A stretch of DNA of 64,000 nt. It comes from an uncultured Candidatus Binatia bacterium (GTDB lineage: Bacteria > Desulfobacterota > Binatia > UBA9968 > JAJDTQ01). Below, piece after piece: positions 3,131-46,450 of this stretch. Both the position numbers and the translations under genes were made by a program. Numbering within the stretch: position 1 is the first letter of the stretch; every line of letters starts with the position of its first letter. Location of the stretch: contig OZ219754.1 of the NCBI GenBank assembly GCA_964291295.2, positions 363,393 through 427,392 of the forward strand, given 5' to 3'. The notes beneath the pieces are model-generated. The model was not told the origin of the DNA and ran no database searches. It worked only from the letters and a program-made list of their open reading frames with translations.

Positions 3131-3164
3131 CCGCCGTCCGTACCTGGAGATGGCGCCGAAGTCC
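3120..3164. repeat. Direct repeat copy A (45 bp, 42/45 identical to 6407-6451) flanking the 3.3-kb islet
   Basis: ccacttcctgaccgccgtcCgtacctggAgatggcgccgaAgtcc, aligned by eye to copy B. It contains the RND gene stop codon. Its reverse complement encodes a degenerate copy (GDFGAISRY) of the Fic C-terminus (DLGAIARY). Confidence 0.8.
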
Positions 3165-3249
3165 CCGCCAGACGCGCGAAACGCGGCTCCCCGAAGAGAT
3201 GAAACTCGCGCCGCAGCACCATCCGCCTCGCCAGACCCGCCATCCCCAC

Positions 3250-3628: not shown

Positions 3629-3960
3629 CCAACCTTCAAATACTCACTTGTAGTGCCACTTGCCGCTTCTGCTCATCGTAACTCTATGATATGTAACGAG
3701 ATCTTGCGGAGGGTGGTAAAGCTGGGTCAGTGCGGCGGGCGAGGCCGGCCGGCCTGCGATGTTCGAGAGTCTTCCGTTGTGTGACAAATGATTGGGCCAG
3801 TTCAGCCTCTGGACGCGATGCCGGGCACAGGGCACGTTGTCTGTTCCAACCCGCCACAACGACCTGTCCGACTTTCCGACGCCACCTCACATCCGAGTGG
3901 ACGGCCCGTGAGCGCGAGTTTTGAATGGCCCTGCTGCGGGTGGGGCTTCGCGAGTGTCCA

Positions 3961-4590: not shown

Positions 4591-4592
4591 GT

Positions 4593-5243: not shown

Positions 5244-5269
5244 CTTCACCTCCTGAAAAGCGCCGGATT

Positions 5270-5992: not shown

Positions 5993-6406
5993 CGCTGCCT
6001 CTCCTGGTGCATGCCGATACTCGACTTGTCGCTGTGCAGGATCTTCCCCGTAACGTTCATTGCCCGGCACACCCGTCGCGCCACAGTCATGCCCGCTTCC
6101 CACCTTGTATCCCCTGTCTCCGTTTCCTCTGAGTCGTGTACCCGAAGACGGGATGTCCGCCCCACCCAAGTGCACCGGATTCGCCATCCCTTTGCATGGG
6201 CGGTTCCCCCAAAAACCCAGCAGACTGGTTCCCGGATGTTATGCATCGCCGGTCACCTTTGTGCAAGCACCGCGCGAGCCGCAGGCCGCGGCGTCAAACC
6301 GGGACATCGTCGGGATGCGCCACCGTCGAGACCGAAGTGCAGGGCGTAGCGCATGAAGCGCCCGGTTGGACGAACTCGGCCTTGGCGCGCCGATGCGCGC
6401 CCCCGG

Positions 6407-6451
6407 CCACTTCCTGACCGCCGTCAGTACCTGGCGATGGCGCCGAGGTCC
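6407..6451. repeat. Direct repeat copy B (45 bp) flanking the 3.3-kb islet
   Basis: ccacttcctgaccgccgtcAgtacctggCgatggcgccgaGgtcc. It contains the Fic gene stop codon. Its plus-strand reading gives ...PPATS*, a degenerate copy of the RND C-terminus ...PLPTS*. Confidence 0.8.
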
Positions 6452-7608
6452 AGTTCCACGACCCAGTCTCCGACCGATTCATCCTTCGCAAAGAAGATGA
6501 ACCCCAGATCCCTGAGCCTCAGCAACTCTCGATGGAGAGTCCGTCTCGTGACGTTGCGGTACGCGGATTTCACGTATCGGTCCTCAAGCAGTTCCGCCAG
6601 CGCGATGCGCCGGGACGACGCATCCGAGAAGGGATCCACCGGTTCCGTCCCGCTCAGGAGAAAGTCGAGAAGCTGATACTCCCGCTGGTTCAGCAGCCGT
6701 CTGCGAGCGCCCGTTTTCCTGTTGAGGGCCTCCACGAGCATAGTCCGGTACACCAACCGGTTGAGCTTTGCCTTGACGAAGTTGTTGATGCCCTTGAGTT
6801 CGCTCGCGAAGCCTTCAACTCCAAAGCGAACGAAGGCCGTGACATCAAAGGGCTGACGTTCCCGGCATTGTTGCAGGATCGACTTGTACCGACTCTCATG
6901 GCGATAGAAATAGTTGGACAGCCCGTAGAACCCGTGGACGTTGTATCCGAGTTGAAACAGCATTCCCGCTTCGACCAGCCGTGAGACCCTTCCATTGCCG
7001 TCACCAAAAGGATGGACGGTTACCAGGAAAAAATGCGCGAGCAAGGCCCGGACCGCGGGATGAGTCTCCTCGAACCGACGCGAATGGAGAAAGTCGATGT
7101 ACTCCGCCATCAACCGTGGCAGCCCCTCATAAGGCACGCCTCGATGGACCCCTCCCAAGTCGTTTGACCCCACGGTGACAGGAAAACCGCGAAGTTTTCC
7201 CGGAATATTGTTGACGATGTCGGAATCGCGCGTGATCATTTCGTGCAGATTGAAGATATCCGCCAATTGGATGGGAGGCGCGTCAGGGCGAAAGCGATTC
7301 CTCACCCAGGACTGCGCAGCCTCGGCGTTCCTTACCTGCAACTGCTCCCTGGCGGCATTGTCCCGGTTCTTCTCCGAGTCCAGCGACTCGAGCTGTTGAG
7401 CGACTTCGGCCTCGGACAGGGGATTGCCTTCAATGGCTGTCGTTCCGTGAACGGCCCGCACGCGGTTCAGACGATCCAACCGGGCTCGCCAATCTTGTGG
7501 AAACACAAGATTGAGGGCAGCCTCTCTGTACGCTTCGATCTGGACGAGGGCCTGGAAGAGACCCTTCGTATCCAGCTGAAAGTCGAAGGAGAACCGCTTC
7601 CAGTCCAT
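6424..7608 (-). CDS. Fic family protein (AMPylase-type) with N-terminal inhibitory helix and C-terminal wHTH
   Basis: Canonical Fic motif HPFGDGNGRVSR. An N-terminal TTAIEGN matches the autoinhibitory (S/T)xxxE(G/N) motif. An AT-rich promoter-like region lies upstream at 7620-7730. Confidence 0.9.
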   Translation of the reverse strand: MDWKRFSFDFQLDTKGLFQALVQIEAYREAALNLVFPQDWRARLDRLNRVRAVHGTTAIEGNPLSEAEVAQQLESLDSEKNRDNAAREQLQVRNAEAAQSWVRNRFRPDAPPIQLADIFNLHEMITRDSDIVNNIPGKLRGFPVTVGSNDLGGVHRGVPYEGLPRLMAEYIDFLHSRRFEETHPAVRALLAHFFLVTVHPFGDGNGRVSRLVEAGMLFQLGYNVHGFYGLSNYFYRHESRYKSILQQCRERQPFDVTAFVRFGVEGFASELKGINNFVKAKLNRLVYRTMLVEALNRKTGARRRLLNQREYQLLDFLLSGTEPVDPFSDASSRRIALAELLEDRYVKSAYRNVTRRTLHRELLRLRDLGFIFFAKDESVGDWVVELDLGAIARY

Positions 7609-9253: not shown

Positions 9254-10831
9254 ATGAACGGCACCTTTCGGGAGTACATCGATCTGCTGCGGGCCAATGA
9301 CGAACTGCTGCACATACGCAAGCCGGTGGATCTGAGGGACGTGGCGGCGCTCACGGACCAGAGCGACCGGGCACTGCTGTTCGAGAACCCCGCGGGGTAC
9401 TCCATCCCGGTGGCCTGCGGTCTGCTCCAGAAGCGCGAGCGTCTCGGCCTGGCGATGGACGCCCCCTACCCCGAAATTCACAAGCGTTTCCAGTGGGCCA
9501 TGTCCAACTCCATCGAGCCGGTGCTGGTGGAGGAGGCCCCGGTGAAGGAGTTCGTGCAACTCGGCGCGGACGTGGACCTGTTCAGGCTGCCGGTGCCGAT
9601 CTTCTCCACCCTGGACGGCGCGCCCATGATCACCGCCGCAGTGGTCCTCTCCGAAGACCCCGAGTACGGCATGAACGCCGGTGTCTACCGCCTGATGCTC
9701 AAGGAGCGGAACGTCACCGGCATCGACATCGTGACCCCCAACAACCTTCACAACTTCACCCGGCGGGCGCTGGAGGAGAACCGCCCGCTGCCCATCTCCA
9801 TCTCCATCGGCGTACACCCCCGGGAACTGATGGGGGCGCTTTTCAAGGCTTCGCTGGGAACCAACGAGCTGGGTTTCGCCGGTGGCCTCGGCGGGCGTCC
9901 GGTAGAGTTGACCCCGGGGGTCGCCGGGCCGGTGCCGTTCATCGCGGGCGCCGAGATCGTTCTGGAAGGCGAGATCCCGCCCGAGGGGTGGGTGCATCCC
10001 GAAGGCCCGTTCGGCGAGTTCTCGCGCCTGGTGGGAGGCACCCACCGGAATCCCAACGTCCATGTCAACTCCCTGCTGCACCGGCGCGACCCCATCTACT
10101 ACGCGCTGCACATGCCCTGGGAGAATCTGTGGATGAGCGCCCCGATATACGAAGCCGCCGCCTGGCGGGTGCTGGCCGAGACCGGCGTCCGGGTCGCCGC
10201 CATCAATGTGACCCCGGGCGGCTGCTGCCACTGGCACATCGTGGCGTCCATCCGCAAGAGCCCGGGCGACGGCAAGAACGCCATTGCCGCACTCCTCTCC
10301 ATCGCCGACATCAAGTACGTGGTGGTCACCGACGACGATATCGACATCTTCGATCCCGTGGAGGTGGAGTGGGCCATGGCCACCCGCGTGCAGGCGGACC
10401 GGGACACCGTCATCCTGTCCAATGCCCGCTCCAAGCCCCTGGACCCCTCCATCCCGCCCAGCGCCAACGGTGTCCCCACCACCGCCAAGATGGGCATCGA
10501 CGCCACGATCCCCGAGAATGTGCCGCGCTACCGCTACAACCGCATCGTCTACCACAACCAGGGCAAGGCGCTGCTGGACGACTACCTGGGCGAATCTCCG
10601 GCCACCCCCCTGCCCGCGGCCGCCGCGGACGACGCCGTCGAACAGCTGGCGGAACAGGCCCTGGCAATGTTGGGCGAGAAGCGGCGGACCTTCAGCGAAC
10701 TGCTGGACGCCTTCTCCGACCAGAGCTTCGCCACCGTCATGGCGCTGGTGGGCCGCCTCAACGAACAGAAACGGATCACCCTGGATGAAGAAGGAAAGTA
10801 CATGCCCGCGGAGGAGGACGCACCACGGTAG
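9254..10831 (+). CDS. UbiD-family (prenylated-FMN dependent) decarboxylase
   Basis: 525 aa. It starts MNGTFREYIDLLRANDELLHIRKPVDL..., a typical UbiD N-terminus, and resembles UbiD throughout. The ATG is preceded by GGAGGTGGAG. Confidence 0.85.
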   Translation: MNGTFREYIDLLRANDELLHIRKPVDLRDVAALTDQSDRALLFENPAGYSIPVACGLLQKRERLGLAMDAPYPEIHKRFQWAMSNSIEPVLVEEAPVKEFVQLGADVDLFRLPVPIFSTLDGAPMITAAVVLSEDPEYGMNAGVYRLMLKERNVTGIDIVTPNNLHNFTRRALEENRPLPISISIGVHPRELMGALFKASLGTNELGFAGGLGGRPVELTPGVAGPVPFIAGAEIVLEGEIPPEGWVHPEGPFGEFSRLVGGTHRNPNVHVNSLLHRRDPIYYALHMPWENLWMSAPIYEAAAWRVLAETGVRVAAINVTPGGCCHWHIVASIRKSPGDGKNAIAALLSIADIKYVVVTDDDIDIFDPVEVEWAMATRVQADRDTVILSNARSKPLDPSIPPSANGVPTTAKMGIDATIPENVPRYRYNRIVYHNQGKALLDDYLGESPATPLPAAAADDAVEQLAEQALAMLGEKRRTFSELLDAFSDQSFATVMALVGRLNEQKRITLDEEGKYMPAEEDAPR

Positions 10832-11065
10832 ACCGTCCGGTGGAGAAACGGCTGCGAACACCGGAGGGGCGGCCGGCGAGCCGGTCGGTCGGAGCCACTA
10901 CCCGCCGTGATGTCGAGAGCCTCTTGCATCTTCTTCACCGAGCGTCACGGCTCGATGCCAGGCAACCAGTACAGGTCGTTTCTGCGCTCAGTCTACCGCA
11001 GGCCCTGCGTCGATCAGGACGGATTGCGCAATCCGGTCGAGCAGCACTCGCCGACGGCGGTGCCA

Positions 11066-11839
11066 TCATCCCCGCAGACTCATCCCTCGCTCAGCTCCGG
11101 ACCGGGTCACCAGAACTTCCTGATCAAACCCGTATCGGGCAACCTCGAAGGCGCCATTCGCTTCCAGATCCCTCGGCGACGGCAAGCCGACATCAAATGG
11201 AAACAGGTGAGGGCAACGAAGCAGGGAGGTGGCCGATCGAGATTTGGCATCGTGGACTGCGAACATGGCCGAGATCGCCCAGATGGAGAGAGGCAGGTCA
11301 TCGACCACCCGTTTGGGAGCAAAGCGGTAGAAGCCTTTCTTCTCCCTTTCAAGAAGTACGCCCCAGTCGATGAATGCCCGAAGGATACGCCGTGCGGCGC
11401 GGGCCACTGTTTCGCGTTCGCCCATTTGCTCGCGGAGTCGGCGCTGAACCTGGGCTGCTCCAACGGTTCCCTGAAGCTGAAGCAACCGCCCGGTCGCATC
11501 GGCGACCGCGCCGAAAAAGGGGTAGGCCGCCATGCACATGCACCAGTGCACCAGCATCCGCTGGTCCCCGGACAGGCGTTGAAGCAGATCAAGCCCGTCG
11601 TCGCGGAGCGGTCGAAGCTCTCCCGGAACGGTAACCCAGACTTTCGTCAGGATCGTGATGGCCTTGTCACGGTTTCCCCGCTCGGGTTCGTTCCCGACCG
11701 ACAACTCGGCCCGCAACCTGTCGCCCAGCGCCGCGACGATCTCGCTTCTCCGACTCCCGGCGAGAACCAGATTCGCCGTGAATTCCAGCCACTCAAGTCG
11801 AATACGCTGGCTGAAACCGACCTGCTCGCTACGCGTCAC
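11066..11839 (-). CDS. Hypothetical protein in the BrxA position of a BREX type-3 operon
   Basis: Last gene of the operon. Its GTG start overlaps the pglZ stop (GTGA). No motif was recognised, so the assignment rests on gene order only. Confidence 0.4.
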   Translation of the reverse strand: MTRSEQVGFSQRIRLEWLEFTANLVLAGSRRSEIVAALGDRLRAELSVGNEPERGNRDKAITILTKVWVTVPGELRPLRDDGLDLLQRLSGDQRMLVHWCMCMAAYPFFGAVADATGRLLQLQGTVGAAQVQRRLREQMGERETVARAARRILRAFIDWGVLLEREKKGFYRFAPKRVVDDLPLSIWAISAMFAVHDAKSRSATSLLRCPHLFPFDVGLPSPRDLEANGAFEVARYGFDQEVLVTRSGAERGMSLRG

Positions 11840-13863
11840 GCCGACACCCTCTCGATCTCGACCATCGGGACCACGACCTCTTCGAGCGAGGCACCGCCGT
11901 GGCATACAATGCGTTCGCCTTCGCGCACGAAGGCTGATCGAGCTGGAGCGAGCAGGGGCAAACAGTCTTCGGGGAGCCCGAGGGCCGGCCACACGACCGC
12001 GTCCGGGAAACGATTGTGCACGCGGGATCGCAGGCTCGGATCGGAATAGACCCGCACGCGTTCGCCCCGAAGGGCGGCGGTCATGCCCTCGGAAGGGCGG
12101 CCGATTCCTTCCGCCTCGATATTTCCGTGGTCCGAGGTCAGAAACACGGCGAAACCGCCTTCGAGCAATGTGTTCAGCAATCCCACCATGAACCCTTCAT
12201 CAGCCCATTGTCGGACTTGGTTGTGCATCCCGGCTGCGCCGAGTTCCATGCCGTGCATGATTCTGTCGACCTTGTCGACCACAAGACCGAGGACGCGGAG
12301 ACCGGGCCATGAAAGAAGTTCGCGAACGCTGTCGATGCAGCCGCTCCCCAATCCTCTCGCATATGTCACCTCCCGCACCGTCAGGCCGTGGTCGGTCCAG
12401 AACCGGGTCCACAACGAAGCTTCCCTGTCCGTGGTCCAGAGGCTTGAGGGAAAGTAGAGTGGGGGCGTGCCGGCGAAGATTGCCTGCCGGGAAACCGAAG
12501 TGACCGTCGGTATCCATGCGAAAACAGCTTCTTCACGAAATCGGAATCGCGACTGACGAAGTGCGAGAATGTCCCGGAGTGCGATCCATTGGTCGAGCGC
12601 GAGACCGTCGACAACGACGAGTGCGACCCTGTTTCCACCTGCATTCGAAAGCCGCCGTTCGAGATACCGCGGCAGGTGATGGACCATCACCGGCGGGTCG
12701 GGCGGCTGATTATGAAGCCCCGCATAACGGCACTCGGTCCAGGAGCAAAACGACCGGTCGACATCCCTGCGAAGACCGCGCATCCGCTCATTCATGCCAG
12801 ATCGCGTCGCGTCCGTCGTGTCCGACCAGAGAAGGCCCAACTCCGCCCATCGCCAAGCGAAGGCCGTCCAGTCGTAGTGCCGTGCGCCGGTATCGGGGAT
12901 CGTATTGGCAACGGTATCCATCAGGCTGCGGAGCCGTCGCGATTTGCCAGACTCGTTGTCGTTTCTTATCCCGACCGCCACCCATCTGTCATTGAGGGCG
13001 TCGCTCGACCTGTGATGCACAGGCGAAAGCAGTCCCTCGACGAACAGATTGTCGATGTAGATGCGCACGTCACCATGGTCGAAAGGCAACTCGACGGGGC
13101 CTGCTATCGCCGGATCGAACGCCGCATTCGCATCCCGAACATGATACTCGGTGTCCCACGCGATGCGGTCGAGAAAAGGGGACCAGTGGTCCTGAAGGAA
13201 AGAAAGGAAGGCTTCCCGATCCGGCACGATGGTCTCAAGTGGCCAGGAGTCGAAGGCTGCGTCCTGGCGAAGCTTATGGACCAGGCACTGCTCCAGCGAG
13301 CGCGGAAGCCGCTGACGCCGGTAATGCTTCCGCAACAGAACACGCAGCAAATCCGCACCGTCCCTGATAAGCGCGACAGAGATTCCAAAGACGTGCAGAA
13401 GCACAAAGTCCTTCGTCGCATCGTCGCCGCACTGAATGAATCCGTGTTGCGCCCGTGCCCGATAGAGAGCGTCGAGATTGCTTCTGTCAAGTGAAGCGAC
13501 AACAGGGTAGCTGAGATGGGGAAACAGTTCCTCCAGGCCGAAGGAAAGTTGCCGGCCGACCTGCAAGAGATCGTAGGGAAGGGTGGCGAGATCATGCTTC
13601 CCGGTCTGAAGAACAACCACCAAGTCGCGAACCTCACCCCGGTCCCGGCGGAATCGAAACCCGGTTTCGTAGGCGAAGCGGAACGCGACAGGGTCGTCGA
13701 ATACCAGAACCTCGAAGCCCCTCTCGCGTATCGCGTCGAGGAGGTTCTCTTCGAGCAACAGCGCGTCCGGGTCCGCGGCCAAGGTAAGCCCAGCCACCTT
13801 CGGCGTGAAGTGCCTCAATATCCGATTGCGCCAATCATCGGTCTTCCCGTAGGACACGTTCAC
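11836..13863 (-). CDS. pglZ: PglZ alkaline-phosphatase-superfamily protein (BREX)
   Basis: PglZ-domain hallmarks are present: VALVVVDGLALDQW, IPTVTSVSRQAIFAG and FLTSDHGNIEA. The start overlaps the methyltransferase stop by 4 nt. Confidence 0.85.
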   Translation of the reverse strand: MNVSYGKTDDWRNRILRHFTPKVAGLTLAADPDALLLEENLLDAIRERGFEVLVFDDPVAFRFAYETGFRFRRDRGEVRDLVVVLQTGKHDLATLPYDLLQVGRQLSFGLEELFPHLSYPVVASLDRSNLDALYRARAQHGFIQCGDDATKDFVLLHVFGISVALIRDGADLLRVLLRKHYRRQRLPRSLEQCLVHKLRQDAAFDSWPLETIVPDREAFLSFLQDHWSPFLDRIAWDTEYHVRDANAAFDPAIAGPVELPFDHGDVRIYIDNLFVEGLLSPVHHRSSDALNDRWVAVGIRNDNESGKSRRLRSLMDTVANTIPDTGARHYDWTAFAWRWAELGLLWSDTTDATRSGMNERMRGLRRDVDRSFCSWTECRYAGLHNQPPDPPVMVHHLPRYLERRLSNAGGNRVALVVVDGLALDQWIALRDILALRQSRFRFREEAVFAWIPTVTSVSRQAIFAGTPPLYFPSSLWTTDREASLWTRFWTDHGLTVREVTYARGLGSGCIDSVRELLSWPGLRVLGLVVDKVDRIMHGMELGAAGMHNQVRQWADEGFMVGLLNTLLEGGFAVFLTSDHGNIEAEGIGRPSEGMTAALRGERVRVYSDPSLRSRVHNRFPDAVVWPALGLPEDCLPLLAPARSAFVREGERIVCHGGASLEEVVVPMVEIERVSA

Positions 13864-33213: not shown

Positions 33214-35838
<2,625 letters not shown>

Positions 35839-35905
35839 GAGATTCCTCCGGTGTCCCCCCGGTGTCCTTCGGTGTACCGGCCCCGCGGCACCGAACCCTT
35901 GTGAA

Positions 35906-35933
35906 AATCTAGGTACGGATTCGGCAAAGTCAA
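35906..35933 (-). promoter_or_regulatory. Putative clpB promoter (TTGACT-N16-TAGATT)
   Basis: Read on the minus strand, about 70 nt upstream of the clpB ATG. It also loosely resembles a sigma-32 promoter. Confidence 0.35.
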
Positions 35934-36074
35934 CGCGACCGGCACCCTGCCGGCCCTCCGGAACCAACGGCTGCGGCACACCCGGGACTTGACCCGGGCG
36001 GCCGCGGTTTCCTGGTTCGGCCGCACCATTTCTGCTATCTATCCAGCTATCCGCCCGATTACCCGATCGGATCC

Positions 36075-38673: not shown

Positions 38674-39503
38674 TGAGCCGAGGCTTCTTCATCACCGGCA
38701 CCGACACCGGCGTGGGCAAGACCCTGGTGGCCTGCGGCCTTGCCGCCGCATTCAGGGACGCCGGATTCAAGGTGGGGGTGATGAAGCCGGCGGAGTCCGG
38801 ATGCCACAACGAGCACGGGCGCATGGTGCCCCGGGACGCGCACCTGCTCAAGGCCGCGGCCGGCAGCGACCAGCCCATCGAGCGCATCTGTCCTTACCGG
38901 CTGGGCCTCCCCGCGGCCCCCAGCGTTGCCGCGGCCCACGCCGCCACCCGGATCCGGCCGGACTTCCTGGTGCGGCTGTACCGCGACATGGACGCCGTCC
39001 ACGACCTGATGCTGGTGGAAGGCGCCGGCGGCCTGCTGGTGCCGCTGCACTCCAGCTACACCTTCGCGGACCTGGCCCGGGAACTGGAGCTCCCGGTGCT
39101 GGTGGTGGTGGGCAACCGGCTCGGCGCCATCAACCAGGCCCTCCTGACCTTCGAACACGCCGCCTGCCTCAATCTGAAGGTGTACGGCTATTTCCTGAAC
39201 GATATCGAGGAGGGAGAAACGCCCGCTACGTCCACCAACGCGGCGACACTCCAGGAAATGACCCGAGTTCCGTGCGCCGGCAGGATCCCGTTCCTGCAAC
39301 CGCAGGGCTCGGGCGCACCGCCGGAGACGCGCTCCGACCTGGGCCGCCTGTTCCAGCGCCACACCCGGCTCGACCACCTGAAACAGTCCATTGAGTCGGC
39401 GGGCGTTCCCGTGGAGCGAGGTTCCGTGGAGCGGGAGCGGCCCGCCCGCGCCGCGGCGAAGCCCCGCCGCGATTCCGGCATGGCTATCCCGCGGCGCCGA
39501 TGA
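38673..39503 (+). CDS. bioD: Dethiobiotin synthase
   Basis: FFITGTDTGVGKT P-loop. The ATG overlaps the bioA TGA. The C-terminus is longer than usual (276 aa) and the 3' end overlaps the larC 3' end by 20 nt. Confidence 0.85.
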   Translation: MSRGFFITGTDTGVGKTLVACGLAAAFRDAGFKVGVMKPAESGCHNEHGRMVPRDAHLLKAAAGSDQPIERICPYRLGLPAAPSVAAAHAATRIRPDFLVRLYRDMDAVHDLMLVEGAGGLLVPLHSSYTFADLARELELPVLVVVGNRLGAINQALLTFEHAACLNLKVYGYFLNDIEEGETPATSTNAATLQEMTRVPCAGRIPFLQPQGSGAPPETRSDLGRLFQRHTRLDHLKQSIESAGVPVERGSVERERPARAAAKPRRDSGMAIPRRR

Positions 39504-40656
39504 AGCAGCGGGTCACCTCGTCGTACACCGCCTTCAACGGCACCTTCTTCGACACCGCCACCTTTCGCGCCTCGTCGTACTCCGGAGTGGCCCTGTGCCC
39601 GCCCCCGGGCTCCTCCGCCACCTTGACCGTGAGGGTGCCGAACCGCGTCTTCAGCCTCAGCGTCCTGCGCGCCAACACCAGCCGCTCCACCATGTAGCAA
39701 CGCACCCCCAAGGTGGAAGTCTCCCGGAGCACGACTTCGGCCAGCGCGTCCCGGAGTTCCGGTGCGGCGACGATGCGCAACAGCGTACCGGGCCGGTTCT
39801 TCTTCATCTGCACCGGCGAAAGCGCCACGTCCCGGGCGCCGGCGGCGAACAGACGTTCCAGCACGTAGTCGTAGATCTCCGGGTTCATGTCGTCGATGTG
39901 GGTCTCCATCACCAGCATGCGGTCGCGGCCCAGGGCGGGCGCGCCCTCGCCCAGCACGATCCGCAGGAGATTGGGCCGGTCCGGGAACTCCAGCGTGCCC
40001 GCCCCGTAGCCCGCGCCCTTGATGCGCATGGCCGGGACCTCTCCCTTCCGCGTGACCAGCGCCGAGAGGATCGCCGCGCCAGTGGGGGTGACGTTCTCCG
40101 CTTCGAGCCCCGCGTCCTCCACCGGGAACCCCTTGAGCAGTTCCAGGGTTGCCGGTGCCGGCACCGGCAGCACCCCGTGCAGCGAGCGGGTCAGGCCCCG
40201 GCCCAGCGGCACCACCGAACAGGCAAAAACGTCGATGGCCAGATGACAGGTGGCGATGGCCGCCGCCACGATGTCCACGATGGAGTCCACCGCCCCCACT
40301 TCGTGGAAGCGAACCTCCTCCGGCGGGATCCCGTGGACCCTGCCCTCGGCATCGGCCAGCCTGGAAAAAATTTCGATCGAACGCGCCTTCACCTCCGCGG
40401 TCAGCCCGCTCTCCTCGATCAGCCGTCGAATCCCGCTCCAACTCCGACTTGGCCGCTCCTTGCCCGCGATGACCTGGAACCGGACCGCTCGAATCCCGCT
40501 GGCGGTCTTGCTCCCCGCCCGGAGCCGGAAGTCAACGCCCGAAAGCTTGCCCAACTCCTCCCGGAGCCGCTTGCGCGGCAACCCCAGGTCCAGCAGCGCA
40601 GCCACCGTCATGTCACCGCTGATACCGGAGATGAGATCGAAGTAGGCGATCCTCAT
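39484..40656 (-). CDS. larC: LarC-family nickel insertion protein (DUF111)
   Basis: MRIAYFDLISGISGDMTVAALLDLG is a canonical LarC/DUF111 N-terminus. Confidence 0.8.
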   Translation of the reverse strand: MRIAYFDLISGISGDMTVAALLDLGLPRKRLREELGKLSGVDFRLRAGSKTASGIRAVRFQVIAGKERPSRSWSGIRRLIEESGLTAEVKARSIEIFSRLADAEGRVHGIPPEEVRFHEVGAVDSIVDIVAAAIATCHLAIDVFACSVVPLGRGLTRSLHGVLPVPAPATLELLKGFPVEDAGLEAENVTPTGAAILSALVTRKGEVPAMRIKGAGYGAGTLEFPDRPNLLRIVLGEGAPALGRDRMLVMETHIDDMNPEIYDYVLERLFAAGARDVALSPVQMKKNRPGTLLRIVAAPELRDALAEVVLRETSTLGVRCYMVERLVLARRTLRLKTRFGTLTVKVAEEPGGGHRATPEYDEARKVAVSKKVPLKAVYDEVTRCFIGAAG

Positions 40657-40713: not shown

Positions 40714-41970
40714 TCAGAACAGATCGGTCAGGTCGGAGTTGCCCGAGACGGGTCGCGGCGAGTCGGAGACCGTTGGCGGCGAGACCGAGCCTCGCGCCCC
40801 GGGCCGCTGGATCGTCAACTGGCGCCGACCTGCCAACTCCTCGAACCGTTCGCGGAACAGGCACTTGTGCTCCCTCGCGCTGAAGTAAAGCCATCGGACG
40901 GCGCGGGAGATGCCGACGAACAGCCATCGTTCCCATAACGCGGGCGGACGGCGCGAGAAGGTCTCCGCCTCCAGGCGAGGCATCAATACCGTATCGAAAG
41001 TCAAGCCCTTGGCGCTGGGGTAGGCCATCGCCTTGGGACGAAGCGTACCGAAGTCGATGGTCGGCAGTGTGGATCGATTCCGCCTTCCCGGCCACGCGGG
41101 TACTTCAACCTCCACACCGGCCTCGTTCAGCCTCTGCGCATAGCCAAACACGTGCCGGCGCGTGGGGAACAGCAGGGCGATGCGCTCGCCCTTGTCGATG
41201 CGCGCGCGAACCACTTCGACGAGCTGCTCGCGTTCGTCCTCAAGGTCACCTGCGAGGTACAGCAGCGGCGGCTGGCGCTCGCCCTTGTCGATGGGTGGGT
41301 TCTGGCGGATGAACCAGCGACGCTCGGTCTCGTCGGAAATGAAAGCGGCCGCGGTCCGGACAACATGGGGTGAACAGCGGTAGGCGTCGAGCAGGGTCGA
41401 CGTGCGCCGGTGCAACCGCAGGCGGGTCAACAGGTCATGCTCTTCGATGCCGTTTTCGTAGATCTGCTGCTTGTGATCCATGAACACGGTGACGTGAGCG
41501 GCAACCGTGGTCAGAATGGCATAGGCCCGGGCATCAAGATCCTGCCCCTCATCCACCATGACAAAGTCGTACAGCGGCATCAGGCGGGACCGCGAACGCA
41601 CCTCCGTCCAGACAGCCTCACGGACCGCATCGAAGTCAGGCCCCTCCTCGCCCCGCGGCAATGTCCGCCGGACATATTGCCTGTAGAATTCCTGACACCA
41701 GGCGTCGAAGGTCATGATGCAGCCGGCAGGCAGGTCGAGGTCGTCGAGGGCCGTGCTGATATAGGCCTTCAGGGAGTTGGTGAAGACCAGCAGCCGGTAA
41801 CGCGCCGGCGGGATATCGCCCTCATCGACCAGGTGTCTGGCACGGTGCAGCAGCACCAGCGTCTTGCCGGCACCCGGCGAACCCAGCACCAGGTGATGCT
41901 GCTTCGCATTCATCTCTACCGCACGAATCTGTGCGGACGTCAGTTCATTGCGGGGAACGAGCCAACCCAT
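40714..41970 (-). CDS. Minimal UvrD-like superfamily-1 helicase
   Basis: Walker A GSPGAGKT, motif II MVDEGQDL, LLDAYRCSP, and motif VI-like VGISRAVRWLY. 418 aa with no additional domains. Confidence 0.7.
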   Translation of the reverse strand: MGWLVPRNELTSAQIRAVEMNAKQHHLVLGSPGAGKTLVLLHRARHLVDEGDIPPARYRLLVFTNSLKAYISTALDDLDLPAGCIMTFDAWCQEFYRQYVRRTLPRGEEGPDFDAVREAVWTEVRSRSRLMPLYDFVMVDEGQDLDARAYAILTTVAAHVTVFMDHKQQIYENGIEEHDLLTRLRLHRRTSTLLDAYRCSPHVVRTAAAFISDETERRWFIRQNPPIDKGERQPPLLYLAGDLEDEREQLVEVVRARIDKGERIALLFPTRRHVFGYAQRLNEAGVEVEVPAWPGRRNRSTLPTIDFGTLRPKAMAYPSAKGLTFDTVLMPRLEAETFSRRPPALWERWLFVGISRAVRWLYFSAREHKCLFRERFEELAGRRQLTIQRPGARGSVSPPTVSDSPRPVSGNSDLTDLF

Positions 41971-42158
41971 GGGAACTCGGCTTTCCAGGAGCCTGTGTCG
42001 CAGGACGCTTCGGGATGTGACCGGTGGGAGAGCATGACCAGATTTTCGTCCAAAATGCCAGAAACGTGTAGCCTTGTCCCATTATTGGACATGAATTGGG
42101 TGCCAAGTGGGACTCTGATGGATCTCTGTCCCACGAAAATTTTTTGCGGCGCAGGCTC

Positions 42159-44579
42159 CTAGGTCTCGACCGGCCGGCCGCCGGCAGCGCCCTCCGGCAA
42201 TTCACCCCCAAGGGCCTCCTCGGGTTTCTTGGGATCCTCCCCGGCCGCGATCAATGCTTCCCACGCCTCCTCCGCTTCCTTTGTTCGGCCCTCGTCGCCC
42301 TGAAGCTCTGCGCCATGCAAGTACCAGGCCAACATCCATTTATCGAGCGTGGACGGTGGACCAAATCTGGCGAACGCCTGGTCCAGCAGCGCATCCCGCG
42401 TCGTCACGGGCTGCTTCAGCTTCTGACTCAGCCGGGCCTTGAGCACGAGATACGGGGGGCGAGGATCGGTCGTTTCCTCAAGGGTGTGCATCGCCTCGGT
42501 GAACTTTCCCCGACGTTCCTGCGCCAGCGCCAGATTGAACAACGGCCCGTCCCAACCCGGCGACAGCCTCGCGGCCTCTCGATAAAGCTTCTCCTCACGC
42601 TCGTGGTCGGCCATCTCACCGCAGATCATGGCCATCCGGTTGAGCCGCTCCGCTGCCGGGGCGTCCCGGTTGACCGCGGCCAGCAGGTGAAGCGCCTTTT
42701 CCCGGTTGCCCAACTCCGCCTCCAGCCTGGCGACCCTGTCCACGGTCCTTCGTTTCTGCACCTCCGTCAACGACTCGGTCCGCAAGCGTTCTTCCAGCTC
42801 GAGGATTTCGTCTCGCCTGGCGTTGGGATTCACGACGCTGGTCAGGGGATTCTCGATGGAAGCCTCGAAACCGCCGCGCTCGGGATCATCCGCCAAGGCA
42901 AGGTCGAGATGCAGTACCTGATTGGCATCCATGCGATAGCGCAGGCGCAGCCCGTCACCTTTCTCGACAATCGGACGAATGGTCCAGAGTCTGCGCATCA
43001 GAAGCTTGCCGTTGCCGCCGCGCAGTTCGACGCGCAACGTCACGGCTTCGGTCAGACCGGTCACGGGCACCTTCAAGCCGGTGTTCTCCGCCCAGGCGCC
43101 GTTGGCGGGAAAGGGGAGCTCGGCTCCTTCCTTGATCAGCGGCACCCGACCGTCCCGGGTCTCGATATCGATGCTGTCCGAAGACACCGGCCCGACCATG
43201 CCGCGACCGCACAGAGCCAAGGCCATGGCATGCCATGCCGCGCCTTGAGCCACGGCCGTCTGCGTACTCTCGCGGTCGTCGAAATGCAGCACCTGCGCGT
43301 TGGGGAAGAAGTGCTCGACCGCCGCCACCACCTGCGGGATCAGACTGCTGCCGCCCACCAGCAGGCAGTCGTCGACCTCACCCGGCTCCATGCGTGCCCG
43401 CTCCAGCACGTCCCGCAGCGGTGCAAAGATGGAACAGAGCGACTGGTACTCCGTGTCCCGGGGGTGGAGCATGTCACGGTCGAGAAACGGTTGCAGCACA
43501 CGTTCGAACTGGTCCGCGCTCAGCGTCGGCGACTGAAGTTTCAGTGTCGTGCCGTCCCGCAGGGAACAGGGATAGACGTTCGGGGTCCGCTGCACCAGGA
43601 CGGACCGCCGCTCCTGGTAGCGACCAAGCTGCTGGAGCCGGGTGATTTCCCGGCACAGATTCGTCTTCAAGGCCTCCGCGGCGCCCAGGAGTGACGGGAT
43701 CACGGACCGGGCCTTGTCGTCGTAGTCCAGGCGGTGGGGATCAAGATCATTCTGCTTGATCAACTGAGGGAGCAGAACCTCCAGCACGATGGCGCGGTCG
43801 ATGTCACCGCCGCCCAGCCGATGGTAGCGGGAAACCGCAAGCGGCGCGGCCCCCACCGGCGCACCGGGGGCGTCGGGCGGCAGCAGACGAAACAGGGCAA
43901 CGTCGCAGGTGCCTCCGCCAAAGTCGAACACCAACAGCCGCTGCGGCGACGATGCCGTGAACACCTCTTTTCCATGTGCCACCAGGTAGGCGACAAAAGC
44001 CGCGATGGGCTCGTCCAGGAGGGCGCCCTCCGCCAGTTCGATTCCCGCCAGCCTGGACGCCTCGAATGTGTCGCGCCGCTGAGCGGCCTGAAACGCCGCC
44101 GGAATGGTGACCACGGTGGCCGCAACCGGCGTGTCGGACTCGCTCATCGCCGCGTCCATCAGGAACTTCAAGAGATGGCCGCCCACCTCGCTGGCTGAAC
44201 GGAATCCTGCCGGAGCCTTGTGGTAAGTCCGGCGAACGCCGATGTCGTTCTTGCACTCCCAGAACAGGTTTCGATTCTGCTCCAGGCCGTATTCGGCCGG
44301 ACGGGCGCGCAGCCCCTTTGCGCCCTCGCCCACCAGAAGCCGTCCTTCGTGCAGTGCAAGAACCGATGGCACGACGGCGTGGATGAAAGGGCCTTGGAGG
44401 GTCTCCTGCTCGACTTCGAGACAGCGCACCTCGGGCAACTCCATGGAGCCCGGAACCGCGACAATTTCGGCGATCTCCGAATTGGTCGTGCCCAAGTCCA
44501 TGCCGACGACACGGACCGGTTCGACCGGCAGCCGGATCCGAGCATCGCGCGGCATGATCAGCGTCAGTGACTTGCTCAC
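42159..44579 (-). CDS. Hsp70-family ATPase with C-terminal TPR-like repeat region
   Basis: GMDLGTTNS, TIPAAFQAAQRR..LLDEPIAAF, FDFGGGTCDVALF and LLVGGSSLIPQV. The C-terminal ~220 aa are helical and TPR-like. The start is GTG at 44579, or alternatively ATG at 44555. Confidence 0.8.
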   Translation of the reverse strand: MSKSLTLIMPRDARIRLPVEPVRVVGMDLGTTNSEIAEIVAVPGSMELPEVRCLEVEQETLQGPFIHAVVPSVLALHEGRLLVGEGAKGLRARPAEYGLEQNRNLFWECKNDIGVRRTYHKAPAGFRSASEVGGHLLKFLMDAAMSESDTPVAATVVTIPAAFQAAQRRDTFEASRLAGIELAEGALLDEPIAAFVAYLVAHGKEVFTASSPQRLLVFDFGGGTCDVALFRLLPPDAPGAPVGAAPLAVSRYHRLGGGDIDRAIVLEVLLPQLIKQNDLDPHRLDYDDKARSVIPSLLGAAEALKTNLCREITRLQQLGRYQERRSVLVQRTPNVYPCSLRDGTTLKLQSPTLSADQFERVLQPFLDRDMLHPRDTEYQSLCSIFAPLRDVLERARMEPGEVDDCLLVGGSSLIPQVVAAVEHFFPNAQVLHFDDRESTQTAVAQGAAWHAMALALCGRGMVGPVSSDSIDIETRDGRVPLIKEGAELPFPANGAWAENTGLKVPVTGLTEAVTLRVELRGGNGKLLMRRLWTIRPIVEKGDGLRLRYRMDANQVLHLDLALADDPERGGFEASIENPLTSVVNPNARRDEILELEERLRTESLTEVQKRRTVDRVARLEAELGNREKALHLLAAVNRDAPAAERLNRMAMICGEMADHEREEKLYREAARLSPGWDGPLFNLALAQERRGKFTEAMHTLEETTDPRPPYLVLKARLSQKLKQPVTTRDALLDQAFARFGPPSTLDKWMLAWYLHGAELQGDEGRTKEAEEAWEALIAAGEDPKKPEEALGGELPEGAAGGRPVET

Positions 44580-44660
44580 GGGTATATTGTCCCGGTTCTG
44601 TGGTTATCCCGCCGTATCGGCCCGCCATCTGCAACACGGGAAGTCGGGCGTTCTACGGTT

Positions 44661-44693
44661 GGACACGGTACTCGTCGAGGACAAGGTACTCGT
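44661..44693. repeat. 15-bp direct repeat x2 (ggacaMggtactcgt, 18-bp period) upstream of the Hsp70-like gene
   Basis: Read directly from the sequence, 14/15 identity, 82-114 nt upstream of the GTG start. Confidence 0.6.
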
Positions 44694-44912
44694 TGCGTGT
44701 CTGGCAGTCCAGCGAGGTACGGAGTTGTTGACGAAAAGTTCATGGTTGGCGAGGCCCGGGGCCAAGGCGAGACGGTGAGGGGTACGTCGTCGAAGTGGTA
44801 TTGGAATCGCTTCGCGTTTTCAGGCTCACTCTCAGGCTCACTTTGCATTGGACAAGACGGGACGTTTACTTGAGGTTCGGGGAATGCTAACCTGTAAAGA
44901 CTGCAACAGAGT

Positions 44913-44988
44913 GGGGCCGTAGCTCAGCTGGGAGAGCGCTAGGTTCGCAATCTAGAGGTCGTGGGTTCGATCCCCATCGGCTCCACCA
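44913..44988 (+). tRNA. tRNA-Ala (anticodon CGC), CCA encoded
   Basis: ggggccgtagctcagctgggagagcgc... with the G3:U70 identity pair, anticodon loop TTCGCAA, and T-arm gtgggttcgatcccc. Confidence 0.9.
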
Positions 44989-45060
44989 TCGCCTTCTTCC
45001 TCGAACCCCCCTTCCCCGAGACTCTTTATACTCAGACCCTTCTTCCTGAGAATCGAAGGC

Positions 45061-45094
45061 TGCCAATCGGTGGTGACTGCCAATCGGTGGTGAT
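45061..45094. repeat. 17-bp tandem repeat x2 (tgccaatcggtggtgaY)
   Basis: Read directly from the sequence, 16/17 identity, 73 nt downstream of tRNA-Ala. Confidence 0.7.
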
Positions 45095-45237
45095 TTTTCG
45101 GGGCGTGACCGGTGTGTGTAGCCGAAGACGTGACGCCTGCAGATTCACGCCTGGCTGACCGCCGCCCCGGTGCCGCACGCCCCGCCGCCGGCACTTCGCT
45201 CATTCCGACCCGCGGGAATGGCGGGCGAGCGGCGGGG

Positions 45238-45924
45238 CTAACGCGACGCTTCGGTGAGGGTCCGGATCAGTTCGTCCGCCTGCGGGTTCCTGTACTTTCT
45301 CCGCAGCAGGATATCCCTGGGCGAGACATCGGGCTGTCCGTAGTAGATCTGATTGTCGCTCCGGCTGATGGAGACGATGCCGCCCTCGATGGCCACCCCC
45401 GCGAACAGCCCCTTGATGCGGGAGAACGAGAAGATGTCGAAAATCTCGGCCTTGGCGCCGACCCCTTCGGGTCCCACGCTGATGCTCGCGTCCGCGCCGA
45501 GCTTGAACTTGTCCTTCAGGAACCGCCTCAAGCCTCCCTCGGTCATGATCATGAGAATGACCTGACTACCCGCCGCCCCGAACTGAAGACCAAAGGAGGC
45601 GGAACCCACATCGTAGAAGGCCGGATTGCTCCACGTACCCGCGGCGTCCTGGGCCAGCAGCACCCCCTTGCCTCCCGAACCGCCGATGAAGAAGCCCCCC
45701 TTGAACAGGAGCGGCATGATGAGAAGTCCCTTGGCATAACGCACGTTTTGCCGGAACCACGTCATCCGGACATCCCTCTGGAAGTCCCGAAACGTGAACC
45801 GGGCCTTGGTCACCCGCTGGGCGAGATCCTCCTCGGTGAGTTGCGAGCCCGTCGGCTGCGCACCCGACGGGGCCGCGGACAACACCGCGAACAGCACGGC
45901 AAACGCTGCCAGGAACTTGTGCAT
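45238..45924 (-). CDS. SYLF (DUF500/Ysc84) lipid-binding domain protein with signal peptide
   Basis: MHKFLAAFAVLFAVLSAAPSGA signal sequence. ...GGFFIGGSGGKGVLLA...GLQFGAAGSQVILMIM...GADASISVGPEGVG... shows the SYLF pattern. Confidence 0.75.
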   Translation of the reverse strand: MHKFLAAFAVLFAVLSAAPSGAQPTGSQLTEEDLAQRVTKARFTFRDFQRDVRMTWFRQNVRYAKGLLIMPLLFKGGFFIGGSGGKGVLLAQDAAGTWSNPAFYDVGSASFGLQFGAAGSQVILMIMTEGGLRRFLKDKFKLGADASISVGPEGVGAKAEIFDIFSFSRIKGLFAGVAIEGGIVSISRSDNQIYYGQPDVSPRDILLRRKYRNPQADELIRTLTEASR

Positions 45925-46231
45925 GGGACATCTCTTTCCGGTCGGCGAGCGGTCGGTCATCAAGATCATCGTCTCGGCTCCCCTTCTCAACTCCCCATCT
46001 CCCCTGCCCCCGTTATCGCTCCGCAACCGGACCCCGCCTTGGGGGACCATCTCCATCTCCGCTTCAAGATTAACATGCCGGGCCGGGATGGGAAACGAGA
46101 CCGGCCTCTCCGACGGTGCCTTCACCGGGGCCGGCAAGGTGCTCGCGGGCAAGAGCGGGAGGGGTGCGGGCAAGCCGAACTCCGGTTCCGGCACCACCCC
46201 CGGGCGTCAACGTCGCACTCCCGAACCCTGC

Positions 46232-46260
46232 TTGAAACTTTACGACTTTCCACGCATAAA
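46232..46260 (+). promoter_or_regulatory. Putative sigma-70 promoter (TTGAAA-N17-CATAAA) for the lipoprotein gene
   Basis: Read directly from the sequence. It would give a ~185-nt leader before AAGGAGG-N7-ATG at 46451. Confidence 0.3.
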
Positions 46261-46450
46261 GGAAGCGCGACAGTCGCCGTAGGTGCCCGTATGTCGGGTT
46301 ACCTGCTGAATACAAAAGCTCCCTGTACCCGGCAAGGGGTAGCTCCCCAAGCCCGAGTGAATAGGCAGGACTCTCACCGTACCTACGTGTGACTGTCGCA
46401 ACGGCCCGGCAATCCCGCCAGGCCGCGGTCCTTGTACAAGGAGGATTCGC

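Follow-up and report, generated by a model that had tools for sequence, protein, structure and literature searches.

The window carries an Hsp70-TPR gene paired with a minimal helicase gene

We analyzed a 64,000-nt stretch of contig OZ219754.1 (assembly GCA_964291295.2, positions 363,393 to 427,392) from an uncultured Candidatus Binatia bacterium; this whole stretch is called the window below. It contains a two-gene cassette of 3.9 kb on the reverse strand. The first gene codes for an Hsp70-like protein with tetratricopeptide repeats (TPR), here called Hsp70-TPR, and the second for a minimal superfamily 1 (SF1) helicase of the UvrD/PcrA type. A preliminary description made from the sequence had proposed the two as a conflict module, and both of its open reading frames (ORFs) were recovered with the same ends and on the same strand.

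42159-44579, reverse strand: Hsp70-TPR gene, 806 aa, with a GTG start and its stop codon at 42159-42161 (ORF and translation)
40714-41970, reverse strand: gene of the minimal UvrD/PcrA-type SF1A helicase, 418 aa, with its stop codon at 40714-40716
41971-42158, no strand: intergenic spacer of 188 nt, atypical for the family

The motifs quoted earlier for the 806-aa protein (GMDLGTTNS, LLDEPIAAF, FDFGGGTCDVALF, and LLVGGSSLIPQV) and for the 418-aa protein (GSPGAGKT, MVDEGQDL, and VGISRAVRWLY) were all found in the respective translations.

The two genes are near-obligate neighbors

Genomes were searched with an alignment of Hsp70-TPR proteins, using one genome per GTDB species; the neighborhood counts given here and below refer to the best 80 loci of the 336 positive genomes. 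In 70 of the 80 loci, the next gene downstream on that strand codes for a helicase homolog; four of the remaining ten loci stop at a contig end, which leaves 70 of 76 informative loci. Reciprocal seeding with a helicase alignment in JGI metagenomes retrieved 55 family-level helicases, 41 of which were informative, i.e., had at least 600 nt of upstream sequence, and an Hsp70-TPR gene was found directly upstream in 39 of these 41. The two genes, previously noted side by side in the window, are thus conserved neighbors, and their co-inheritance is near-obligate in both directions. Clustering of the flanking ORFs of the 80 loci revealed no third conserved gene, as no cluster exceeds 14 loci.

A 4-nt overlap of the two reading frames was found in 34 of 65 pairs, and 57 of the 65 show either this overlap or a gap of at most 25 nt. 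These overlaps and short gaps point to translational coupling as the usual arrangement in the family. The 188-nt gap in the window is real, as described before, but it must be counted as an oddity because the genes of the relatives mostly overlap or nearly touch. The spacer has a GC content of 0.54 and contains short hairpins (GGGAC...GTCCC). No copies of it were detected elsewhere in the window or in related loci, an Rfam search for an RNA element in the spacer and upstream region returned the tRNA and nothing else, and promoter and terminator scans of the same regions gave nothing above background. This GC-poor, unique spacer is a peculiarity of the window copy.

Predicted architecture of the Hsp70-TPR protein

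Pfam analysis of the 806-aa protein returned HSP70 (3.5e-28) and a weak match to TPR_8. More than 1900 homologs of ~800 aa were retrieved; the homologs share 45-69% identity over the full length, which places the observation far beyond chance. A structural model was generated with AlphaFold2 (AF2) on an alignment of 20 diverse homologs, with a mean predicted local distance difference test score (pLDDT) of 84.3 and a predicted template modeling score (pTM) of 0.76. It divides the protein into four parts.

43209-44516, reverse strand: nucleotide-binding domain (NBD) of the actin/Hsp70 fold, residues 22-457
42822-43196, reverse strand: peptide-binding beta-sandwich resembling the beta part of the Hsp70 substrate-binding domain (SBD-beta), residues 462-586
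42243-42821, reverse strand: TPR-like helical repeat domain in place of the alpha-lid, residues 587-779, with 11 helices by DSSP on the AF2 model
42162-42242, reverse strand: low-confidence C-terminal tail with a G-x-L-P motif (L794-P795 at 42195-42200)

Residues D28, K110, E190, D219, T224, D226, and G409-G410 are invariant among the 20 diverse homologs, and the first six are the counterparts of DnaK D8, K70, E171, D194, T199, and D201. D28, E190, D219, T224, and D226 pair directly with the DnaK residues in a BLAST alignment to a manually entered Escherichia coli DnaK sequence, and K110 was assigned by motif inspection as BLAST misaligns that stretch. Foldseek searches of the PDB with the model returned DnaK, BiP, and Hsc70 at 1e-25 to 1e-30 (1e-27 to 1e-30 for DnaK). 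The alignment to DnaK without SBD-alpha (5obu) extends over 606 columns and hence covers SBD-beta.

The region following residue 480 had been described as a short beta-rich segment followed by TPR-like repeats instead of a lid. The repeats are borne out by the model. The beta segment proved to be longer: since the Foldseek alignments run through SBD-beta, it is predicted to be a complete substrate-binding beta domain (residues 462-586), with at least eight strands between residues 462 and 583. Its conserved motif RLRYRMDxNQVLHL, read from the sequence, resembles FDIDADGILHV of DnaK, and the linker between NBD and SBD-beta is hydrophobic, as in DnaK. According to the model, therefore, both NBD and SBD-beta are complete, and the lid and tail of Hsp70 are replaced by about 5.5 TPR repeats. 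Pfam detects these repeats only weakly in the window protein (TPR_8), with many TPR matches in the homologs. The combination of SBD-beta and TPR module was found only in ~800-aa proteins of this family, with 548 representatives at E<=1e-3 and 121 at E<=1e-30 (1.84 billion sequences searched).

In the C-terminal tail, P795 is invariant and L794 nearly invariant among the 20 homologs, and a hydrophobic-Pro motif is present in all 61 of 61 full-length homologs from paired loci, while pLDDT falls below 50 at residues 780-789 and 800-806. The protein is acidic overall, with charges of about -10 for the NBD, -5 for the SBD, and 0 for the TPR domain.

Assignment to a named chaperone, DnaK, HscA, or YegD, is ruled out by NCBIfam scores of 26-103 bits, far under the respective cut-offs of 331-1019. 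The DnaK and HscA models reached 49-103 bits (cut-offs, 620-1019), and NF008673 (PRK11678) reached 26.4 bits (cut-off, 331), which places the protein outside the HscC/YegD type. As reported earlier, no dnaJ or grpE gene is nearby: a J domain is encoded nowhere in the 64-kb window, and no GrpE-type match was obtained among the genes at ~30.6-52.9 kb. Likewise, no J domain was found in the related loci L001-L092, and DnaJ and GrpE Pfam families were absent from the Pfam-labeled neighborhoods and from the window neighbors. Unlinked host co-chaperones may serve Hsp70-TPR.

The minimal helicase

The 418-aa protein matched the Pfam families UvrD-helicase (2e-16), AAA_19, UvrD_C, and UvrD_C_2. Its best hits were PcrA (2.8e-19) and UvrD (2e-18) in a profile search of the PDB, and PcrA, UvrD, and Rep (2e-15) in Foldseek searches with its AF2 model (pLDDT, 84.1; pTM, 0.82). 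All three approaches identify a UvrD/PcrA-type SF1A core, in agreement with the earlier view of a stripped-down SF1 helicase devoid of nuclease or other accessory domains. As the protein is ~200-300 residues shorter than PcrA, UvrD, and Rep, the model is best read as a bare 1A/2A motor that lacks the accessory domains 1B and 2B. Two of its elements are placed as follows.

41860-41883, reverse strand: Walker A motif GSPGAGKT, residues 30-37, in which G30, P32, G33, G35, K36, and T37 are invariant
40717-40734, reverse strand: extreme C-terminal motif DLTDLF-COOH, residues 413-418, following a disordered linker of ~25 aa

D140-E141-G142 and D144 of helicase motif II (DEGQD) and R356 of motif VI are also invariant. 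With the conserved residues of Hsp70-TPR, this pattern predicts that both proteins are ATP-driven machines with intact active sites.

The helicase core is basic, with a charge of about +4.7. Residues 394-418 have pLDDT values below 50 and are predicted to be disordered. Across the family, the tail consists of a variable, acid-rich linker leading to [DE][DE]-L-x-D-L-F-COOH, with the variants LDFL, DLIDLL, and DILDIL. Among 60 full-length helicases from paired loci, the last two residues are hydrophobic in 57, and 46 end in Asp followed by two hydrophobic residues; the acidic fraction ahead of the tip is 0.34.

Distribution and variants of the pair

The pair occurs in 336 of 185,579 species genomes (~0.2%) from at least 15 phyla. 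Homologs at 42-69% identity were recovered from Acidobacteriota; Gamma-, Beta-, and Alphaproteobacteria; Desulfobacterota; Bacillota; Nitrospirota; Verrucomicrobiota and other PVC members; Planctomycetota; Poribacteria; Ignavibacteriota; Chloroflexota; Armatimonadota; Dependentiae; Bdellovibrionota; and others. Protein identity bears no relation to taxonomy. This patchy spread resembles that produced by horizontal gene transfer (HGT) and suggests that the cassette is horizontally mobile.

Several loci deviate from the simple two-gene layout. Locus L090 harbors two tandem, diverged copies of the whole pair (3068-6753 and 10001-13671), separated by a gene for a metallo-beta-lactamase-fold protein, and each of its Hsp70-TPR copies is 55-57% identical to the window protein. 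In L030:9833-14749, an insertion sequence (IS) element with an rve-family transposase (11923-12969) interrupts the TPR-coding part, leaving pieces of 678 and 184 aa, and in L091 the helicase gene is split by a frameshift; these two loci show signs of decay in some genomes. Fusions were also found. Homolog P0040 (L085:659-3970), of 1103 aa, carries an N-terminal Ser/Thr kinase and still has the helicase downstream, and P0256, of 931 aa, ends in a response-regulator receiver (REC) domain. In P0287 (985 aa), the Hsp70-TPR tail is joined to helicase residues 194-371, i.e., the 2A half. We considered this protein as a Rosetta-stone type of functional fusion, but the Walker A half is missing, and it is more likely a deletion product.

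A distant sister pair (29% and 22% identity) is present on metagenome contigs L232 and L235, one of them from human gut. The tight operon of L235 (236-7213) starts with a NusG-like gene and an RVT_1 reverse transcriptase gene (980-2611), followed by genes for an Hsp70-TPR of 798 aa (2608-5004), a minimal UvrD-like helicase of 401 aa (5001-6206), and a 333-aa protein without an assigned family. The sister helicase ends in EDEDFDF, an acidic aromatic tip. A survey of UG/Abi reverse transcriptases makes no mention of Hsp70 or TPR partners (PMC9226505).

Gene neighborhoods of related loci

Analysis of the 80 loci revealed genes of restriction and defense systems around many of the pairs. A gene for an HKD/PLD-SNF2 helicase adjoins the pair in 15 loci, and one for a Type ISP/IIG N6-adenine methyltransferase in 12. 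In the closest relatives, L002 (62% identity) and L089/P0004 (69% identity), the pair lies between the PLD-SNF2 and Type ISP methyltransferase genes. These two loci have the appearance of a split Type ISP-like system around the pair (L002:6795-17227; L089:6814-16659) with an N6_Mtase/Type_ISP_C methyltransferase gene; in L009, L010, L012, L027, and L086, the pair is placed after both the restriction (R) and the modification (M) genes.

Other associations are more diverse. One Pfam-labeled metagenome locus contains a DISARM-like operon composed of genes for a DEAD/MZB helicase, an SNF2 helicase, a DrmMI-like methyltransferase, and an SMC-like protein, after which come the pair and a UPF1-like helicase-PLD fusion. 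One island holds DruA, DUF87, GmrSD, a Type ISP methyltransferase, a UPF1-like helicase fused to DUF559, and an integrase, and another locus combines PLD-SNF2 and an Eco57I-type methyltransferase with toxin-antitoxin and helix-turn-helix genes. The pair is found beside Zorya ZorA to ZorD in one locus and beside Hachiman HamA/HamB with integrases in another. Further neighbors code for VIT-vWA proteins, WYL regulators, and PLD-ResIII-DUF3427 helicases with HIT or ParE N-termini, and some loci carry integrase, ParB, RadC, Prim-Pol, transposase, or DprA-like genes nearby.

Defense-type contexts were recognized in six of the nine Pfam-labeled neighborhoods, and BLAST with seed sequences found a known-defense neighbor in at least 29 of the 80 loci and at least 16 of the 41 loci of 15 kb or more, counts that are lower bounds taken without a formal background control. 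Among 25 loci without a seed match, PADLOC searches of the four nearest genes returned SngC (1e-262), DpdF (5e-248), and a Type III methyltransferase (6e-214), as well as BrxHI, PsyrT, and DndD. With that limit on the counts, the association of the pair with defense genes, which had been put forward as a way of checking the preliminary description, is apparent in DISARM-like, Druantia DruA/GmrSD, Type ISP, Zorya, Hachiman, Type III restriction-modification (R-M), Dnd, Shango-like, and PsyrT contexts.

These arrangements could mean that the pair serves DNA-translocating restriction systems of the split Type ISP-like or DISARM-like kind in an accessory or regulatory capacity, with the window copy as an orphan. 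Such a module might load, recycle, or license a large translocase-nuclease or take it off self DNA. The position of the pair in L002 and L089/P0004, the 15 loci with a PLD-SNF2 helicase and 12 with a Type IIG/ISP methyltransferase, and the DISARM-like operon are in keeping with this idea. However, most loci, including the window, have no such genes within 10 kb, the partners are heterogeneous (Zorya, Hachiman, Type III R-M, and reverse transcriptase), and the pair may either separate the R and M genes or follow both of them. Because of the heterogeneous partners and the varying position, we prefer the clustering of independent cassettes in defense islands as an explanation and regard an accessory role as rather unlikely.

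Two less frequent neighbors were recorded. A DprA-like (DNA_processg_A) gene of ~209 aa adjoins the pair, upstream or downstream, in four loci (L086:13627-14256, L087, L092:9295-9924, and L057:2747-3265) and may be an occasional third component. A gene for a VIT-vWA protein of ~800 aa lies at or near the Hsp70-TPR gene in four loci (L078:1210-3588, L079, L037:3102-5519, and L066); it is directly upstream in L078, and both L078 and L079 have no helicase. vWA proteins are core parts of ternary conflict systems (PMC7159879).

Surroundings of the pair in the window

The pair in the window is flanked by the following landmark and, on either side, by the genes listed thereafter.

44913-44988, forward strand: tRNA-Ala(CGC) gene, identified by ARAGORN and Rfam

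A family scan of the window neighbors identified LarC (39484-40656), BioF, BioA, and BioD. The genes on the LarC side code for a CNNM/CorC transporter, an aminotransferase, a ClpB-type AAA+ protein, BioF, BioA, BioD, and LarC, and those on the other side for a Ysc84-domain protein, a putative lipoprotein, an alpha/beta hydrolase, an amidohydrolase, a phosphoglycerate-mutase-like protein, and a SurA-like peptidyl-prolyl isomerase. None of these neighbors matched PADLOC models, except for generic AAA+ matches to ClpB. The GC content at third codon positions (GC3) is 0.79 for the pair and 0.85-0.91 for most neighbors, and the regional GC content drops from ~0.68 to 0.62-0.65.

The preliminary description had taken this position, between housekeeping genes and a tRNA-Ala gene, as a classic site of accessory insertion. 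The flanking genes are as it said, but their status as an insertion site finds no support: the pair sits on the 5' side of the tRNA gene, no integrase was found among the scanned neighbors, and no att-like direct or inverted repeat of the tRNA-Ala 3' end is present within 38-50 kb of the window. We therefore treat tRNA-Ala as a flanking landmark, not as an established integration site or part of the module.

Several other features of the region were recorded. A perfect 17-nt tandem repeat, CTGCCAATCGGTGGTGA, is present in two copies at 45060-45093, ~70 nt downstream of tRNA-Ala, and overlaps a terminator-like hairpin followed by a T-run. Upstream of the Hsp70-TPR gene, a 90-aa ORF (44576-44848, reverse strand) has no conserved counterpart in the related loci. 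Beside the tRNA gene, the ORF at 45112-46392 (forward strand) has no family match and is probably spurious; the overlapping 45238-46197 (reverse strand) is the likely gene, given its high GC3 (0.83) and its Ysc84 domain (6e-29). The gene at 33214-35979 (reverse strand), ~5 kb from the Hsp70-like gene, codes for a ClpB-type double-AAA+ disaggregase with Clp_N, AAA, AAA_2, and ClpB_D2-small domains. Since its PADLOC matches, PDC-M37B and DolB, are confined to the AAA+ core, it is probably a housekeeping ClpB.

Predicted role and proposed mechanism

Conserved pairing, patchy distribution, and the company of defense genes make a conflict or defense role of the pair likely. On balance, we favor the reading that the pair is a self-contained, horizontally mobile, and previously undescribed cassette of the anti-phage or anti-mobile-DNA kind. 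We also count in its favor the lower GC3, the indications of turnover (tandem diverged copies, the IS insertion, and the split helicase), the conserved tail motifs of both proteins, the fusions to signaling domains (kinase and REC), and the sister pair beside a reverse transcriptase.

Several observations weigh against this reading. The pair encodes no nuclease, toxin, or membrane effector. In the window it is located among housekeeping genes with no known defense gene within ~10 kb, and the same is true of the syntenic group L005/L088/L090. The defense-context counts, as said, lack a background control. Six Hsp70-TPR homologs with room downstream have no helicase; the TPR domain and tail hence cannot serve solely to hold it. 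A covariation analysis of helicase tail types (xF, FL, and LL) with Hsp70-TPR columns in 57 pairs found no domain enriched, the top 40 columns falling into the NBD (19), TPR (11), and SBD (9) about in proportion to domain size, and the signal probably reflects phylogeny. Nearly all homologs are from uncultured organisms, in metagenome-assembled genomes. Finally, no orthologs were detected among 72,556 plasmids and 50,697 phages, and only one true ortholog among 2.9 million IMG/VR viral contigs.

The housekeeping contexts of the window, L088, L090, and L005 would suit a genome-maintenance or transcription-rescue module, in which the UvrD-like translocase, acting like UvrD, Rep, PcrA, or HelD, clears protein roadblocks or stalled RNA polymerase and the dedicated Hsp70 remodels the displaced proteins. 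So would the weak similarity of the helicase to the RNA-polymerase recycling motors HelD and HelR and the lack of an encoded toxin or nuclease. The helicase tail also resembles the acidic, aromatic-ended C-terminal tip of the single-stranded DNA-binding protein SSB, which we take to count for this alternative. Nevertheless, only ~0.2% of species genomes carry the pair, its spread is patchy and HGT-like, its composition is atypical for its surroundings, and its neighborhoods are variable and frequently contain restriction or defense genes, integrases, toxin-antitoxin genes, and IS elements. Together with the tandem diverged duplicates, such rare, patchy, and variable-context features are untypical of housekeeping repair genes, and we find this role unlikely.

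The near-complete absence from sequenced plasmids and phages, with a single ortholog in 2.9 million viral contigs, bears on a further alternative, namely, a selfish function of a mobile element, be it anti-restriction or anti-defense or the replication or maintenance of an integrative element. Integrase, ParB, RadC, Prim-Pol, transposase, and DprA-like genes near some loci would fit such a function. The window copy, however, has no hallmarks of an element, and in several loci the pair shares an operon with restriction genes, in the same orientation and at close spacing, making a selfish function very unlikely.

Within the favored reading of an anti-phage or anti-mobile-DNA cassette, it is possible, though doubtful, that the pair acts autonomously as a new type of immune system, with a bona fide Hsp70 machine as the infection sensor. 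The two proteins quite probably form a physical complex. How they would work together is a more tentative matter, for which we propose, by analogy, a switch based on tail docking and client competition. EEVD tails of the Hsp70/Hsp90 machinery bind TPR clamps, and C-terminal tips of SSB bind partner proteins and recruit repair proteins; both precedents motivate the proposal, as does the chaperone-addiction tail of toxin-antitoxin-chaperone systems discussed below. The C-terminal tail of the helicase, with its acidic linker and D-L-x-D-L-F-COOH end, would dock on the TPR groove or the SBD-beta cleft, a site that the G-x-L-P tail of Hsp70-TPR itself might occupy instead, and the Hsp70 ATP cycle would govern the contact. 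A phage peptide or protein, a sudden load of non-native phage polypeptides, or disturbed proteostasis would act as the trigger at the SBD-beta/TPR site and displace the tail. ATP-driven release or activation of the helicase on nucleic acid might then abort replication of the invader. Candidates for the executing step are protein displacement, interference with replication, ATP depletion, and cooperation with neighboring restriction enzymes; this step is the least certain part of the mechanism because no nuclease is encoded.

The pair recurs between R and M genes, and its sister clade is linked to a reverse transcriptase; both suggest that the module is reusable and that its logic may be applicable across defense families. 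If the pair is indeed an autonomous system with an Hsp70 sensor, it would represent a chaperone-helicase unit of modular design, able to plug into R-M, DISARM, and reverse-transcriptase systems, and folding surveillance by a dedicated Hsp70 would be a direct trigger of immunity at the nucleic-acid level. A dedicated, J-protein-independent Hsp70 hard-wired to a helicase is so far undescribed, even though Hsp70 is among the best-studied machines. A defense role would also account for the recurrent "Hsp70 family protein / AAA family ATPase" gene pair of hundreds of environmental genomes. With two genes in 3.9 kb and clear mutational targets (the Hsp70 ATPase residues, Walker A, and the six-residue tail), the cassette is tractable.

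Comparison with known systems

No named system fits the pair, as the preliminary description had supposed: no model of PADLOC-DB v2 matches Hsp70-TPR, its NCBIfam scores lie far under the cut-offs, and full-text literature searches found no description of an Hsp70 paired with a UvrD-like helicase. The helicase matched only generic UvrD-type PADLOC models (NERD+UvrD, reverse transcriptase-associated helicase, and GajB), and the defining partners of these systems are absent. The matches to NERD+UvrD (C3a187) and RTasHel span helicase residues 23-378 (profile positions 210-555), i.e., the core only; there is no NERD domain, and no reverse transcriptase is encoded in the window, so that both assignments were rejected. 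Of the resemblances to known defense systems drawn earlier, that to STAND/Avs is one of analogy only; the ATPase here is of the Hsp70/actin fold.

Gabija also has a UvrD-family helicase as one of two proteins, and Foldseek aligned the helicase with GajB (8sm3_B) at 1.9e-9. The GajB models of PADLOC matched at 8.6e-16 to 5e-5, but only over fragments of profiles of 430-670 positions. Unlike in Gabija, no GajA/OLD nuclease is adjacent, the neighbors being LarC and the Hsp70-TPR gene, and the partner is an Hsp70. GajB is also larger, at ~500-650 aa with accessory domains versus 418 aa here.

Like STAND/Avs proteins, Hsp70-TPR joins an NTPase switch to TPR-type repeats as a possible ligand sensor in a defense-island context. 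It differs in having an Hsp70/actin-fold NTPase instead of a P-loop NACHT/NB-ARC, no fused effector, and an additional SBD-beta.

With DnaK and other Hsp70 proteins (HscA, HscC, and YegD), Hsp70-TPR shares the fold, the catalytic residues of the NBD, the hydrophobic linker, and the SBD-beta sandwich. In contrast to them, it carries TPR repeats where they have an alpha-lid and a C-terminal tail, and it has only ~25% identity to DnaK, a near-obligate helicase partner, a rare and patchy distribution, and no J-domain gene in the window or the 92 loci.

Chaperones have been implicated in conflict systems before. In HigBAC, a toxin-antitoxin-chaperone (TAC) system, the SecB-like chaperone HigC binds the chaperone-addiction (ChAD) tail of the antitoxin and the phage lambda protein gpV by the same pattern, and gpV triggers the system (10.1101/2024.02.24.581848). 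The logic proposed here is similar by analogy, in that a dedicated chaperone would bind the C-terminal tail of its partner and a tail-like phage protein would compete for it and thus trigger the response. TAC chaperones of this kind are, however, ATP-independent and SecB-like and have a toxin and an antitoxin as partners, as opposed to an ATP-driven Hsp70 and a helicase. Sensing by bNACHT25 depends on DnaJ (PMC12169576). If the cassette defends against phages, it would add a chaperone sensor to a repertoire that now holds only SecB-like TAC chaperones and DnaJ-dependent bNACHT25. Hsp70-like proteins have also been predicted in GTPase/tubulin conflict systems (PMC7159879) and as fusions to EACC1 proteases (PMC12642450).

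CnuD of the Type III CoCoNuT systems, or CnuD/CnuCD, is the closest known relative. CoCoNuT systems were computationally predicted (Bell, Makarova, Wolf, and Koonin; eLife 2024; PMC11090510), and CnuD combines an Hsp70-like NBD/SBD with HEAT-like repeats and is accompanied by McrBC homologs, a UPF1-like helicase, and nuclease effectors (PMC11090510). Both proteins thus have an Hsp70-like NBD and SBD with helical repeats instead of the lid, an SF1 helicase encoded in the same locus, and restriction-type conflict loci as their setting, including superoperons with R-M, BREX, DISARM, or Druantia-type genes.

This likeness raises the alternative that the pair is what remains of a decayed Type III-B/C CoCoNuT (McrBC-derived) that kept a CnuD-like Hsp70 and lost the McrB/McrC homologs. 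The same layout and SF1 helicase company of CnuD (PMC11090510) would be expected of such a remnant, as would the UPF1-like helicase-nuclease (DUF559/Vsr-like or PLD) found just downstream in two locus types, in the manner of CnuH/CnuE. We nonetheless consider it extremely unlikely: neither an McrB-like GTPase nor a DUF2357 protein was found among the window neighbors or in the nine Pfam-labeled loci, the helicase is UvrD-type rather than UPF1-type, the ATPase motifs are intact rather than degenerate, and the pair is too uniform and too widespread for a product of decay.

The differences from the published CnuD systems are several. The pair has no McrB-like NxD GTPase (CnuB) and no DUF2357 McrC homolog (CnuC). 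Its helicase is of the UvrD/PcrA SF1A type, in contrast to the UPF1-like CnuH with its OB, SmpB-like, or RNase-like domains, and effectors of the HEPN, PLD, or Vsr kind are missing from the core pair. Invariant catalytic motifs distinguish the Hsp70 of the pair from CnuD, whose Walker A-like motifs are reported as degenerate (PMC11090510). Moreover, the repeats score as TPR and not as HEAT-like, and the acidic character of Hsp70-TPR does not favor the RNA-binding role proposed for CnuD. Because McrB/McrC are lacking, the helicase belongs to another clade, and the ATPase motifs are intact, the pair is not filed as a CoCoNuT and is set apart from CnuD by the latter's published description. The idea itself has a precedent in CnuD, an Hsp70-like protein with helical repeats that was predicted earlier as part of restriction-type systems (PMC11090510); if the cassette serves in defense, it would offer an experimental handle on that prediction.

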